Source: Sphyrna mokarran
Taxonomy: Eukaryota
Length of the DNA: 64,000 nt
Assembly (NCBI GenBank): GCA_024679065.1
Contig: JAGIQG010000009.1
Location: forward strand, 81,344,001-81,408,000
Direction of reading: 5' to 3'
Below the pieces are notes generated by a model. It had not been told where the DNA came from, made no database searches, and saw only the letters and a program-made list of their open reading frames with translations. Below, in pieces: positions 1-64,000 of the stretch. Every line of letters begins with the position of its first letter. Within the stretch, counting starts at the first letter, position 1. The translations under genes and the position numbers were made by a program.

Positions 1-14
1 ATGGCTGAAATCAT
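1..14 (-). CDS. IGKV: Start of leader exon of Ig kappa cluster A (MISAI...), running off the left edge
   Basis: Reverse complement ATGATTTCAGCCAT is identical to the leader starts at 14247(+) and 49619(-), and it is preceded by the same promoter. Confidence 0.85.
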
Positions 15-72
15 GGTGTGTGCTCGTGTCCCTGTGCCTGGTTACTGATAAACTCTCCCTTCACTGGGCTCT

Positions 73-168
73 GCTTTATAAAGCTGCAGCCTGTGAGAGT
101 CTCACTGCCTGTTCCTCAGTTTGTAAATGGTCTGACCCAGAGAAACCACGTCAGCACTTTTCACTTCC
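73..168 (-). promoter_or_regulatory. V promoter of cluster A: TATA, degenerate octamer, CRE-like site, Ets-IRF element
   Basis: TATAAA 75-80(-), ATTTACAA, TGACGTGG and GGAAGTGAAA 159-168(-); same layout as in B and C. Confidence 0.65.
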
Positions 169-574
169 TCTTCTTCTCTCTCCAGAGTGTCTGAGGGACA
201 GAGACTGAGGGACAGAGACTGAGGTACAGTGACCCTCAGTCTCTGTCCCTGAGACTTGTCCCTCAGATTCTCTCTCTCATTCTCTCGATATCTCGACCTT
301 CACTCGCTGTCTCTCTCTCTCTCTCTCTCATTCTCAGTCTTTCTCTCTCGATATCTGTCCCTCAGTCTCTGTCTCCCTCGCTCTATTGATACGTCTCCCT
401 CAATTGCTGTCTCTTTCACTCCATTAATCTCTGTTTCTATCCCCCACCCTCTCACTGTCTCTGTTTCTTGTCCTTCCTGTCCCACATTGTTTATTTACCC
501 TCTCATTCACTCTTTCTTTTTCTCTCCTTATTCTCCCTCCCTCTATTCCTCAGTTTTTCCTTCACTTTATCTCA

Positions 575-2330
575 TAGAGTCATTGAGGTTTACAGCAAGG
601 AAACAGGCCCTTCAGCCCCACTTGTCCATGCTGCCCTTTTTTTAAACTCTTTACTCCAGTTGCTGCATTTGGCCCATATCCATCGATACCCATCTTACCC
701 CTGTGACTGCCGAAATGCTTTTTAAAAGACAAAATTGTACCTGCCTCTGTTACTATCTTTGGCAACTTGTTCCAGACACTCACCACCCTCTGTGTGAAAA
801 CATTGCCTATTTGGACACTTTTATATCTCTCCCCGACTCGCTTTAAACATCTGTCCTCCTGTTTTAGAATCCCCAACTTTGAGAAAAAATATTGATTGTC
901 ATGTTGACCTATGTCCCTCATTACATTATAAACCTCTTTAAGGTCACCCTTCAGTCTTCCACGCTCCAGACAAAAAAGTCCCAGTCGATCCAGCCTCTCC
1001 TGATAACCCAAACCATCAAATCCGTAGCATTCTAGTCTTTTCTGCACTCTTTCTAATTTAATAATTTTTTTCTATAACAGGGTGACCAGGACTGTACACA
1101 GTATTCCAAATGTGGCCTTACCAACGTCTTGTACAACTTCAACATAATGTTCTGACTCCGATATTCCATGTTCTGACTAATGAAAGCAAGCATGCCGAAT
1201 GCCTTCTTCACCCTTTTGACAACCTGTGACTCCACCTTCAAGGAGCTATGAACATTTACCCCTCAACCTTTTTGTTCTGTAACTCTCCCCAGTGCCCCAC
1301 CAGTAACTAAGTAAGTCCTGCCTTGGTTCAATCTACCAAAATACATCACCTTACATTTATCGAAATTAAACTGCAGCTATCATTTGTCAGCCTATTAGTC
1401 CAATTCCTGTTGCAATCGGAGATAACTTTCTTCACTGTCCACTATGCCACCAGTCTTAGTGTCATCTGCAAACATATTAATCATATCTCTATATTCTCAT
1501 CCAAATCATTAATATAAACGACAAATCACATTGACCCAGCATCGACCCTTGTGGAACATCACTCATTCTCTTTGTTCCTCTGTATTCTCACCTCACTCTG
1601 CCCCAGAAGAGGTGCCATCCTCCTGGGATCCACTCTGTCAGTCCCCTCACAATCTGATATGGTTCAATAAGATCACCTCTCATTCTTTTAAACTCCAATG
1701 GGTTTAGGCCCAACCTATCCAACTTTTCTTCAAATGATAACCCCTCACCCCTCAATATGTTGAGTGAACCTTCTCCGAACTGCTTCAAACACAATGATAT
1801 CCTTTTTCAAACAAGAAGACCTAAACTACTACACGCAGTATTCCAGATGTCATCTCAGCAAGACCCTGTACAACTGCAGTAAAACTTCCCTATTTATATA
1901 TTCCATTCTCCTTGTAATAAACACCAACATTCCGTTTGTCTTCCTAATCACTTGCTGTAGCTGCAAACTAACTTGTTGTGATTCATGTCCCAGGACAGCC
2001 AGATCCCTCTGTAGCACCGAGTTGTGCAATCTCTCTCCCTTTCTATAGCTTACTGCTTTTCTATTCTTCCTGCCAAAGTGGACACCTTCACATCTACCCA
2101 GGTTGTAGTCCAAGTGTTTAGCCATTTCCCCTGTCTCTATCCCTTTGCAGACTCTCCACCTTGTCTTGATAACTTACTTTTGCACCAATCTTAGTGTCAT
2201 TGGGACATTAGTTCCATTCATTCCCTTCATCCAAGTCATTGATATGGATTGTGAATAGTTGTGGTCCCAGCATTGATTCTAACAGAAATCCCCTAATTAC
2301 AGTTTCCAACCCCAAACAATCATTTATCCC
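575..2330 (-). mobile_element. Two decayed CR1-type LINE 3' fragments
   Basis: Translations such as LYKTLVRPHLEYCVQ, ERLDRLGLF and FTQRVVSVWN, with stops and frameshifts. Confidence 0.85.
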
Positions 2331-2385
2331 TCCCTCATATGTACAATAGAAAGAAACTGCTCCACATCGACCATGATGTCCATGT

Positions 2386-60622: not shown

Positions 60623-61259
60623 ATCAGCATCTCTCCCACTTTGGATAGCAACAGTCTCTGATAACATCAAATACACACACTAACTATTCAACTCCAACAG
60701 TTTCACCAGCTGCTGTCACCCTCCCGACTTCCCTCCATTTATTCTGCATTCTCACCATCTCCCCTCAATTTCTCACTGAATCCTCCAGTTTCCTGGTCTT
60801 TCCTGTGTCCAGGTTCACCTGCCCCCTTCCTCTTGGGATTTTTCGATTGCTTTGTTCCAGAAACTTTCTGGTTGTGGTCAGGGTTCTCTCCACTGCAACC
60901 CGAGACATTTGGTCTGGGCTAGTGTCAATGTTTAACATTCTGTCCCACCTTGGACTGAATACATAACCAGTGAGGGTCTGACCCACACGATGAGAGTTTG
61001 TCACCGTAAAGGAGTCAGGGATCCCGAATGCTGCCATATAACCTGTGTGGGATAATTATTCACTGGATTTAGCTCAGAGTTACATAATATTGGATATTGT
61101 TTTGGTACAAAAGGAAATCTCAATGTTCAGGAAACAGGTGATTGAGAAGAAAGGGGTAGCTTCATGTAATAGTGTGTGTGTCTAGCCCTCAGTTCATGCA
61201 TATAGTTAAATGCATTGTTGTGTATTATAGAGTTTGTGTGTTTTGTTTTCTTTCTACAT

Positions 61260-62135
61260 GTTGTGGATAGTCCGGAGGGATGTCTGAAGTTGCAGCGAGA
61301 CATAGATAGGATGCAAGACTGGGCGGAGAAGTGGCAGATGGACTTCAACGCGGATAAATATGTGGTGGTCCATTTTGGCAGGACCAATGGGATGAACGAG
61401 TATAATATCAAGGGTAGGAGTCTTGGCAGTGTTGACGAGCAGAAGGATCTTGGGGTCCAGGTGCATAGGGCTGTTAAATCTACCCTGCAAGTGGAGGATG
61501 TGGTCAAGAAGGCATATGGCGAACTGGCCTTCATTGATAGAGGGATTGAGTTTAGGAGTTGGGAGGCAATGCTGCAACTTTATAAGACCCTTGTCAGATC
61601 CCACTTGGAGTATTGTGTGCAGTTCTGGTCACCTCACTATAGGAAGGATGTGGAAGTTATTGAGAGGGTGCAGAGGAGATTTACAAGGATGTTGCCTGGA
61701 TTGGGAGACATGCCTTATGAAGATAGGTTGAGAGAGCTAGGTCTCTTTCCCCTGGAGAGACGAAGGTTGAGAGGCGACCAGATAGAGGTTTATAAAATGC
61801 TGAAAGGAATAGATAGAGTGGATTCTTGGAGGGTATTTCCCAGGGCTGAAATGGTTGCTACGAGAGGACACAGCTTTAAGGTGCTGGGGTTCAAGTACAC
61901 AGGAGATGTTAGAGGTACGTTTTTCACTCAGAGGGTGGTGAGTGAATGGAATCAGTTGCCGTCAGTGGTGGTAGAGGCGAACTCGCTGGGCTCTTTTAAG
62001 AGACTTCTGGATGAGTACATGGGATTTAATGGGATTGGGAGTTATAGATAATTCTATGGCTTGGAAAGTATAGATATGATCGGCACCACTTATGGGCCGA
62101 AGGGCCTGTTTGTGCTGTAGTGATCTATGTTCTAT
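61260..62135 (+). mobile_element. CR1 3' fragment (unit D copy, open frame)
   Basis: 278-aa ORF covering the RT C-terminus. Confidence 0.9.
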
Positions 62136-63309
62136 GAATGAATATTCTGTATTAATTATTCACACAAAGACTGGACTATTTCTCCCTGGTTCACACACTT
62201 TTCTCACAGGATACTGAAGTGAAAATCTACACCACTGAGAACCAGTGTTCCATGTTCCCATTCTGAGCTTTGAGATCCTTTCACATTTAACATCAGTGTG
62301 GGTCTGAACACCTCAAACAACATTCTATTGTCTCAAAAGTAACTCTGGAGATTGTTGCTGGGATTTTAAAATGATTCCAGATCTGAATAGTTTTATTGTT
62401 GAGCTGCCTTCTTTAACCTGCTACAAATTGCATCCATCAAACCTTTGGATTTATATTTTGGGAAGAGACATTTGCATTTGTGTCGATAGTTGTCAAACCT
62501 TCAACAATAAACATTTCCTGTTGAGAACATTTTCAGGACCCAAAACTGAACCTTTAAACTTTGTAAGAATTATAATTTCCATGATCAAAATTAAAACTCC
62601 CTCTTCCTGATGTGTGTAGCTTTGTATCCAGATTGAAAGTCCCACATGTTTATTAACAGATGTTCTTTATCTTCGATAACATCTTTGTATCTCAAAGGTC
62701 ACTTGCTGAAAGGTCAGATTCTTATTGATCTGTGTGTGCATATCAGATCTCCTGTCCCCAAGTAGAAAATAACAGTGTTCCTGAAGGGGTTAAATCATTT
62801 TCCACAGAATCCCTAACGTGCAGAAGGAGTCCATTTGGCCCATCGAATCTACACCATCAACAATCCCATCCCACGTCCTATTACTGCGACCCCACACATT
62901 TACCTCACTAATCTCTCTAACCTCCACATCCCAGGAAACTACGGGGCAATTTAGCATGGCCAATCAACCGAATCCACACACCTTTGACTGTGGAAGGAAT
63001 CCGGAGCATCCTAAGAAAATCCACACAGACACGGGGAGAATGTGCAAATTCCACAGTGATCCAAACCGGGAAATCAAGCCCAGGTCCTTAGAGCTGTTAG
63101 ACAACAATGTTAACCACTGTGCCACTTGGTTCTATACCACGACCATGGTGTGGGAATAAAAATCTTCTTAATGTTGCTGGCAATGTTGATCCATTTGTGA
63201 TTCTCTGGAAATAAAAACACAAAGTCCATTCTGCTCGAGGGGGGAATGGATTCAGCAATCTGAAAGTTTAAGCTGTTGTTGCAAAGAGTTCACTCTGGGC
63301 CTGATTTTA

Positions 63310-63890
63310 CCAATCGGAGTCAAAGGGCTGGATCCGGGCGGAATACGGATATGAGCCTGGAATTGTCAGTGCAGCGAGCCCATAGGCTTCTTATATATAT
63401 TTTGAAATATTTTCCCAAAGACTGTCAGATTGGAAGATTGAAATGTAACCAACAGAGGAAGTGAAAGAAGCAGCCGAATATTTGTTACTGAGACGGGAAC
63501 AGTTATCTGAACAACATTAAACTTTCAGACTCAAAAGAAATAAAAACACTAGCAGTGGAGGGGGTGGGAGGAATCTTGGAGACTGACACCGACAGGAACA
63601 ATCTAAACAGCTGAAACTCCCATTTCCTCAGTCCCTGCCCGTCACTGCTCAGGAACTCCCCGAGGGGAACCCTCTCACTCTCTCTCTCTCTCTGTCTTTC
63701 TTGCTCCCTCTCTCTCTGCTTCTGTCTTTCTCTCCTCTCTCTCACTCTCCCTCCTGGATGAAAGCTTAAATAACTTGCAGCAAATTAATTCATTTCCATT
63801 TTTCTAATTATTTGAAAAACTCACTGAGTGACATTTTAAGTCCCCAATCTAAATTTTTCCCTCTCACTCACTACACCTGACACCGGGAAA
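63310..63890. promoter_or_regulatory. Candidate 3' enhancer/promoter module of predicted cluster D
   Basis: EICE 63457-63466 and GGAACTCCCC 63652-63661; collinear with 39010-39580. Confidence 0.5.
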
Positions 63891-64000
63891 TGGTCAATAC
63901 TGTTTTACTGTACCAGTTCGAGAAGTTGGATGTTTGTTACTGAGACGGGAGAAAATGGTGAACCGTGTTCACTACCTCCAATCTGCCAGCACAGAAGGCA

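Follow-up and report, generated by a model that had tools for sequence, protein, structure and literature searches.

The window analysed here, a 64,000-nt stretch of the Sphyrna mokarran assembly, contains two complete Ig light-chain clusters, B on the + strand and C on the − strand, in line with the original prediction of two such genes, and every reading frame is open and every splice site is of the GT/AG type. Each cluster comprises a single V, a single J, and a single C exon in the same orientation, together with a split leader. A tblastn search across the 64 kb returned two V exons and two C exons and no more, and strict matching recovered four RSSs, compared with a mean of 0.01 expected from 100 Markov-resampled sequences. 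Cluster B is composed of the following elements.

14247..14295, +: leader exon with S at residue 10, followed by a 186-bp intron
14482..14780, +: V exon, V-set with an open frame, DNA identical to the V of C
14781..14808, +: V RSS, with consensus heptamer, 12-bp spacer, and consensus nonamer
14824..15234, +: V-J spacer repeat, 6.8 tandem copies of a 61-bp unit
15510..15548, −: J RSS, with heptamer CACACTG (one off consensus), 23-bp spacer, and consensus nonamer
15549..15583, +: J segment, LTFGKGTKLRL, GT donor at 15584
22025..22353, +: C exon, C1-set, GVQ variant, ending SECA-stop; AATAAA at 22727

Cluster C, which lies on the − strand and spans 49619-41485, has the corresponding set.

49571..49619, −: leader exon with P at residue 10
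49086..49384, −: V exon (tblastn match)
49058..49085, −: V RSS, 12-bp spacer
48629..49042, −: V-J spacer repeat, 6.8 tandem copies of a 61-bp unit
48311..48349, +: J RSS, 23-bp spacer
48276..48310, −: J segment, identical to the J of B
41485..41813, −: C exon, GIQ variant, 4 of 329 nt different from B; AATAAA at 41106

Our comparison of the C domain upheld the predicted assignment of these genes to kappa, as its closest relatives are kappa, NS4, and type III sequences. The domain shares 89-92% identity with catshark kappa-like proteins and 85% with a nurse shark light chain as well as with a horn shark protein that is named kappa, and 25 of its 35 matches are named kappa or kappa-like, names that are mostly automatic. 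In a tree with mammalian lambda as the only outgroup and no curated shark lambda, sigma, or sigma-2 sequence included, it was nested among kappa and kappa-like proteins, nearer to catshark than to nurse or bamboo shark with weak support (87/75). The V translation has a CDR1 of 11 and a CDR2 of 7 residues, which are the reference lengths for the kappa type. When the PDB was searched with V, the best 60 of 5290 matches were all generic antibody chains, and an Rfam search gave no match at the gathering score. The 12/23 compatibility was borne out in both complete clusters, with a 12-bp-spacer RSS after V and a 23-bp-spacer RSS before J, an arrangement given as the kappa norm in a figure legend of PMC3014032. 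In B and C, V and J are unfused and the RSSs intact, and these genes are therefore not germline-joined; each C exon has a single J and hence no nested J set of the mammalian kappa type. The canonical octamer was absent within about 350 nt upstream, where A, B, and C carry ATTTACAA (6/8) at −117. A weak candidate for a deleting element (a lone 23-RSS downstream of C) at 22813(−)/41020(+) has four mismatches, which puts it at chance level, since 3.6 such relaxed matches are expected. Among the closest known systems are the V-J-C clusters of nurse shark NS4 and horn shark type III, the elasmobranch Ig kappa (PMC2193156, PMC2435157). According to the available text on NS4, its leader intron is 186 bp, the same length as in B and C, whereas its V-J spacer measures 502-524 bp, compared with 768-775 bp, including the 61-bp repeat, in B and C (PMC2193156). 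The gene is of a known kind, and its arrangement is usefully compact.

Parts of two further clusters, A and D, are recognizable at the edges of the window.

1..14, −: first 14 nt of the cluster A leader exon, ATG at 14-12, MISA; the gene continues beyond the left end of the window
15..190, −: proximal promoter of cluster A, with almost the same sequence as in B and C; TATAAA at −69 and an octamer-like ATTTACAA at −117
57857..64000, −: predicted cluster D, 3' flank, sharing 90.5-95.2% identity with the flanks of B and C

The third leader that had been reported is thus seen as its ATG and promoter only. On the opposite edge, the collinearity noted between two flanks was confirmed, with 58364-64000 matching 33199-39686 at an offset that drifts from 25165 to 24314 and is constant at the latter value from 63839/39525 on, the originally quoted pair 39616/63930 included. 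Projection from cluster C would place the D C exon at 65799-66127, and projection from cluster B at 65777-66105; this predicted exon, at 65.8-66.1 kb as proposed, falls outside the window along with its J and V, as does the V-J-C of A. The possibility that B and C are alleles of one locus was ruled out, given that the flanks of B, C, and D are about equally divergent (pairwise identity 90.5-95.2% in all nine comparisons over three blocks) and carry different insertions.

As assembled, the clusters run A(−) B(+) C(−) D(−), with N gaps interrupting two of the three junctions, and B is alone on its contig (9490-32977) with N gaps on both sides.

9215..9434, +: SINE 5' part, equivalent to positions 2-216 in an intact copy and truncated by the 55-N gap; insertion site equals 57857
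9435..9489: run of 55 N (assembly gap) bounding the probably mis-oriented contig on the left
32880..32977, −: SINE 3' part, positions 234-333 of the intact copy, cut by the 100-N gap; flank resumes at the 57857 equivalent
32978..33077: run of 100 N (assembly gap) bounding the probably mis-oriented contig on the right

The two gap-side pieces make up one SINE copy with 17 nt missing, and the SINE site is empty at the gap-free C/D junction. Because a single SINE is split in this way between the far end of the contig and the neighboring contig, we infer that contig 9490-32977 was most likely flipped in the assembly. When both of its ends were aligned in each orientation to the C/D junction, the neighboring contigs were continued only by its reversed ends. 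At one junction, 57615-57857 is matched by the end of contig 1 (score 284) and 57857-58259 by the reversed right end (score 385); at the other, the reversed left end matches 53877-54384 and the start of contig 3 matches 54471-54533 (scores 850 and 81), the maximum from shuffled sequence being 26. This second junction depends on a 63-bp match to a LINE tail that occurs repeatedly (the best among 6 other copies in the window), and compared with the C/D junction it would have to lack about 3.8 kb. With the contig reversed, the periods are 28206, 21399, and about 24314 bp; the predicted period of 21-28 kb therefore holds in this orientation, but not in the assembled one.

Our reading, to which we give a probability of about 0.72, is that these are unrearranged shark kappa-type genes, with B and C complete, A represented by its leader start and promoter, and a predicted D by its 3' flank, and that they most likely make up a tandem array, ordered head to tail at intervals of 21-28 kb, in which the middle gene appears inverted through a probable contig mis-orientation and each V likely joins mainly its own J. 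The contig orientation and the identities of A and D are deduced from homology. Such an array probably grew by unequal crossing-over of a unit of about 24 kb, the copies of which are now unlike through LINE and SINE insertions, with the gene cores presumably homogenized.

Read literally, the sequence has 9490-25990 inverted relative to 54384-37837 at 97.5% identity, and this 16.5-kb inverted match first suggested a true B/C palindrome, a candidate that was downgraded on the gap-end analysis. Were the assembled orientation real, B would be inverted in the chromosome, either fixed or heterozygous with the assembler breaking at both breakpoints, leaving A/B head-to-head and B/C tail-to-tail with 16.5-kb inverted arms, and V-to-J joins between B and C would be inversional across 33.5 kb. 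A heterozygous inversion would likewise be expected to break the contig at both ends, and the near-identity of the inverted arms fits arm-to-arm conversion. However, both breakpoints are N gaps, one splitting a SINE in its middle and the other placed in unrelated sequence; recombination between inverted repeats therefore does not explain them, and the reversed model lacks about 17 and 77-86 nt, the same order as the gap sizes. A real inversion is therefore very unlikely in our view, and inverted-looking Ig clusters in gapped shark assemblies call for caution, as they can be scaffolding flips. We also think it unlikely that A or D is an incomplete or pseudogenized relic, in which case the working clusters would number fewer than four. 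Within the window, A contributes just 14 coding nt and D no exon, and nurse shark NS4 does have pseudogenes and germline-joined copies (PMC2193156), but the A promoter differs from that of B by one substitution and one indel across about 180 nt while identity in the flank farther upstream is 84.5%, a contrast suggestive of selection or conversion, and the D flank stays collinear up to 1.8 kb from the expected C exon.

The near-identity of B and C, whose V and J exons are the same, admits a further explanation involving the assembly. It centers on one block.

9784..19113, +: 9.3-kb block nearly identical to 54082-44747 (−), with 15 substitutions and 6 indels, all within 14274-15983

The 5' half of B (promoter, leader, V, J, and half the intron) may partly be an assembly copy of C, produced by collapsed repeats or multi-mapped polishing, in which case the identity of B and C and their S10/P10 difference may be non-biological; the count of four units would still rest on distinct flanks. 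This is conceivable, if on the improbable side. There are no differences in the 4490 and 3130 bp flanking the gene core (7.6 kb in total), all 21 differences fall within 1.7 kb (18% of the block) while the adjoining sequence is 95.7% identical, and the region contains gaps and an exact 291-bp repeat. Against this, B and C do differ within the block, the repeat and microsatellite included, the same pattern is expected from mosaic gene conversion among many kappa paralogs, and the sequence upstream of B (9490-9783) is 95.1% identical to A and 97.9% identical to C. The differences on which the original prediction drew, S10 in the leader of B against P10 in that of C and GVQ in B against GIQ in C, are present in the sequence; in the 3' UTR the two genes share 95% identity. 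Testing their linkage in cDNA is nevertheless poorly discriminating, because P10 (24 of 24) and GVQ (25 of 25) are the family defaults in related proteins with a readable motif (39 examined) and B and C share the same V and J exons. The deletional product in the corrected orientation, V of C to J of B, would be P10-GVQ and hence the same as any other paralog, whereas for the distinctive S10-GIQ product the coding joint would sit on the excised circle.

In the preferred head-to-tail array, each J lies 768-775 bp from the V of its own cluster and at least 22.2 kb from the next V, which makes its own V 29 times closer. By established V(D)J chemistry, RAG would cut at the facing 12- and 23-RSS and delete these 768-775 bp, and the joined VJ exon would be spliced across a 6.4-kb intron to C. 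Own-cluster joining would be expected to dominate because each J has a V with a consensus RSS 0.77 kb upstream. Deletional joins of an upstream V to a downstream J would also be allowed, over 22.2 kb from C to B, about 29 kb from B to A, and about 46 kb from D to B across a rearranged C; these inter-cluster joins are probably rare by-products. The earlier suggestion that inter-cluster joining is sterically plausible stands only as a point of geometry, since joins between zebrafish light-chain clusters pass C exons and span distances of up to 81 kb (PMC3014032), and the same geometry favors the own-cluster V.

Known systems bear on this point in different ways. Joining within the cluster has been shown for shark IgH (PMC2191167, PMC2435157), and reviews state the within-cluster rule for clusters generally. 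The IgH miniloci (IgM, IgW, and IgNAR) are likewise multi-cluster, chromosome-linked, and deletional within the cluster, but are spaced by 120 to >200 kb for IgM and 82 to >200 kb for IgW (PMC2435157, PMC5192425), and stingray IgNAR neighbors start about 140-340 kb apart (PMC12227049 Table S1, which as available contains no kappa genes), compared with the 21-28 kb period here. The within-cluster evidence thus comes from IgH loci at least 120 kb apart rather than from kappa, and therefore may not carry over to 22 kb; the zebrafish paper, in its available part, itself names distance as a possible reason that sharks are without inter-cluster joins (PMC3014032). Zebrafish IgL clusters resemble B and C in their closely linked V-J-C and 12/23 RSSs, and a V there could reach a J past a C exon; their V is often opposite to J-C, and inversional joins, proven by transcripts, keep the intervening genes (PMC3014032). 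In the shark window, unlike zebrafish, V, J, and C are co-oriented in both clusters, and the predicted cross-joins would delete whole genes. In mouse Igk, as in the shark array model, an upstream deletional V that joins a downstream J can displace an earlier VJ, and strong V RSSs limit scanning-based joining to the nearest upstream V (PMC13190342). The scanning result comes from a differently designed locus, with nested J segments before one C and no V between the old VJ and the next J (PMC13190342), whereas in the shark array a C exon lies in between and a V belonging to the next J is present 0.77 kb upstream of it.

Inter-cluster joining could nonetheless be a regular pathway, with an upstream unrearranged V and a downstream unrearranged J deleting the self-reactive or non-productive VJ-C between them as a form of shark receptor editing. 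In head-to-tail order, every V 12-RSS and J 23-RSS face each other across clusters, the distances of 22-46 kb (33.5 kb as assembled) are below the 81 kb reached in zebrafish (PMC3014032), and in the literature surveyed the within-cluster rule was tested for IgH rather than kappa. We find such a pathway doubtful: the much closer own-cluster V competes with a perfect RSS, editing would require both partners, about 46 kb apart, to remain unrearranged while the middle cluster is in use, and a B/C cross-join gives no combinatorial diversity because the V and J of the two clusters are identical. A rough scan for the CTCF motif found no site, which neither favors nor excludes long-range scanning. The literature within reach, to which most subscription papers did not belong, gave neither a distance between shark kappa clusters nor a report of VJ joining from one shark cluster to another.

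Distance is part of the stated reason that shark Ig clusters do not recombine with one another, and the distances in question were measured at heavy-chain loci; for the main shark light chain, a kappa array with a period of about 24 kb takes this argument away. The array provides exact coordinates that can be distinguished by haplotype (flanks 5-9% divergent) for testing inter-cluster joining and editing. A rather speculative idea, which we hold to be improbable, is that a compact head-to-tail kappa array acts as a proto-translocon, in which an upstream V skips over a used cluster to reach a downstream J, thereby deleting that cluster and editing the light chain. If true, this would overturn the rule of internal-only rearrangement for shark Ig clusters and would go some way to account for exclusion among dozens of kappa genes.

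In self-comparison, one unit, repeated, makes up the window, which holds exactly two V exons and two C exons along its whole length. Strong RSSs number four, where 0.01 would be expected from resampled sequence. The two complete kappa-type light-chain clusters, B and C, retain intact reading frames and splice sites, and V-set and C1-set domains were assigned with Pfam.

Features of cluster B (strand as assembled) and position of cluster C
14247-14295, +, leader exon of B
186 bp, leader intron of B
14482-14780, +, V exon of B
3' of V, consensus 12-RSS of B
768 bp, V-J spacer region of B, with a 23-RSS at its end
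15549-15583, +, J of B
6.4 kb, J-C intron of B
22025-22353, +, C exon of B
22727, poly(A) signal of B
49619 to 41485, -, cluster C, mirror of B

Cluster A is represented at the left window edge by the opening 14 bases of its leader and a promoter nearly identical to those of B and C; the right 6 kb of the window carries the 3' flank for a third time, assigned to cluster D. A fourth C exon had been predicted beyond this flank, and the projection agrees: the offset against C reaches 24314 at the window end, and the exon would lie at 65.8-66.1 kb whether projected from B or from C. Identity among the three 3' flanks (B, C, D) is 90.5-95.2% in all nine pairwise comparisons, which identifies the units as paralogs. 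The J heptamers (15542-15548 and 48311-48317) both read CACACTG, one base from consensus; the V heptamers and every nonamer are consensus. The promoters of B (14130-14137, +), A, and C all carry ATTTACAA at -117, the expected place of the canonical octamer. Upstream of all three lies a 44-bp tandem repeat (2385-2753, 11349-11717, and 52149-52517), constant at 8.4 copies despite only about 85% identity of A's flank.

The assembly gives the order A(-) B(+) C(-) D(-), with B and C as 16.5-kb inverted arms, and cluster B is enclosed between the only N runs in the window (9435-9489 and 32978-33077). The contig ends were compared with the gap-free C/D junction. The contig left of the first gap matches this junction up to 57857 and then continues into the head of a SINE, while the right end of the contig carrying B, once reversed, begins with a SINE tail and matches the junction from 57857 on; set against an intact member of this SINE family, the head spans positions 2-216 and the tail 234-333. 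At the other junction, the reversed left end of the B contig matches up to 54384, and the contig after the second gap starts with a match to 54471-54533, a weaker correspondence that lies in a 63-bp repeat tail, yet the best against six other copies. The simplest reading of these sequence matches is that contig 9490-32977 was placed backwards. B may instead be truly inverted in the chromosome, especially as a heterozygous inversion, which would have broken the assembly at both ends. Turning the contig round places the four units on a single strand, at leader-to-leader distances of 28206, 21399, and about 24314 bp, which agree with the originally proposed period of 21-28 kb. The cluster arrangement is real, and its order is probably head-to-tail.

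The spacers consist mainly of LINE and SINE debris; two stretches, 29200-30135 and 55028-56602, match RT domains in Pfam, and there is one endonuclease fragment and one integrase-like fragment. LINE RT frames remain open at 55025-56602 (-, 525 aa) and 29200-30138 (+, 312 aa), each private to one junction, and such junction-private insertions explain much of the period variation. Degraded LTR-retrotransposon-like fragments occur in the 3' flanks of B, C, and D (31078-31636, 33485-33841, and 58650-58946), one with a weak integrase zinc-binding match under the Pfam cutoff. C's flank also contains an exact 291-bp direct repeat (34080-34370 and 35135-35425) on either side of a LINE 3' fragment; B has the LINE with one copy and D one copy without the LINE, so that the doubled repeat is due either to recombination between B-like and D-like states or to overlapping assembly. 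B and C hardly differ along a 9.3-kb block that runs from the upstream flank to mid-intron: all of its 15 substitutions and 6 indels fall within the central 1.7 kb, with zero in the remaining 7.6 kb. The two clusters have the same V exon, V RSS, and J sequence, and identity past the block is 95.7%. This pattern would fit either mosaic gene conversion or partial assembly collapse.

The genes belong to a known family and are ordinary for it. Their C domain shares 85-92% identity with most full-length matches, among which 25 of 35 bear the name kappa or kappa-like in a comparison set without shark lambda, sigma, or sigma-2, and 85% identity both with a horn shark protein named kappa and with a nurse shark light chain. 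The leader intron of B has the length reported for the nurse shark kappa-type family NS4 (PMC2193156). In a C-domain tree (n = 31; the window's two and 29 of 39 stored proteins, partial or unplaced records excluded), the window's pair adjoins cloudy catshark, a weakly supported placement, and falls outside the group formed by nurse and bamboo sharks. Kappa-like paralogs share a same-size longest contig within species (basking shark, 5/5; catshark, 3/3; horn shark, 3/4, one lacking a contig; brownbanded bamboo shark, 8/10; epaulette shark, 4/5), so kappa linkage is probably general and visible in public annotation, which gives no spacing. The best C-domain match (P0001; 99%), a V-J-C fragment, is labelled Aeromonas veronii at NCBI, and a second (P0002; 84%) is labelled Salmonella; both resemble light-chain transcripts of sharks that were deposited with bacterial labels.

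Joining within a cluster would bring V to J with deletion of 768-775 bp, and such deletion is established V(D)J chemistry. In head-to-tail order, each upstream V would also face every downstream J with a compatible 12/23 pair; the V of C lies 22.2 kb from the J of B, and the V of B about 29 kb from the J of A. Deleting a rearranged cluster would require the V of its upstream neighbour and the J of its downstream neighbour, both unrearranged and, by arithmetic, about 46 kb apart. In favour of inter-cluster joining, zebrafish joins are reported to span up to 81 kb, across C exons, in a study that suggests distance as a possible obstacle in sharks (PMC3014032), and the direct shark data for the within-cluster rule come, in the reports consulted, from IgH (PMC2191167, PMC2435157), whose loci are described as 82 to over 200 kb apart (PMC5192425). 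Against inter-cluster joining, every J has a V with a perfect RSS 29 times closer, strong RSSs in mouse are reported to restrict secondary joining by scanning to the closest V upstream (PMC13190342), and a B/C hybrid would carry an unchanged V and J. We consider inter-cluster joining unlikely as a regular editing route (probability at or slightly below 0.2); rare by-products are more likely. Our literature search, of incomplete coverage, returned no kappa inter-cluster distance and no inter-cluster VJ join in sharks, and the missing reports are weak evidence of novelty.

RSS-like motifs also occur outside V and J. A 61-bp repeat in the V-J spacer carries, in five units per cluster, a weak motif with an exact 23-bp spacer and four mismatches (14847-15126, +; 49019-48737, -), which faces as the V RSS does and would be lost in a normal V-J join. 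Relaxed matches numbered 17 against 3.6 expected, an excess mostly from these units, which are a single motif multiplied. A weak 23-spacer site in J-RSS orientation lies about 80 bp beyond the poly(A) signal (22813, -; 41020, +), in a place where a kappa-deleting element could be located; such matches are at chance level.

Leader-to-C linkage in cDNAs had been proposed as a test of inter-cluster joining, with leader residue 10 (S10 in B, P10 in C) and a C-domain variant (GVQ in B, GIQ in C) as markers. The differences are real; their diagnostic value is weak. Among 39 related proteins, P10 occurs in 24/24 readable (15 unreadable) and GVQ in 25/25 readable (14 unreadable), leaving S10 and GIQ as private variants. 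A deletional hybrid in the corrected order would be P10-GVQ, which is the default of the family. To form S10-GIQ, a downstream V would have to join an upstream J, with the coding joint ending on the excised circle; this product would persist stably only with a real inversion as assembled. Any one-SNP test is confused by allelic variation, by hypermutation, and by template switching in RT-PCR, and it is further blurred if loci are as numerous as the 60-70 of NS4 type reported in nurse shark (PMC2435157). The published spacing of shark heavy-chain loci is several-fold wider than that of this kappa array, and in so compact an array the old question of inter-cluster joining becomes testable.
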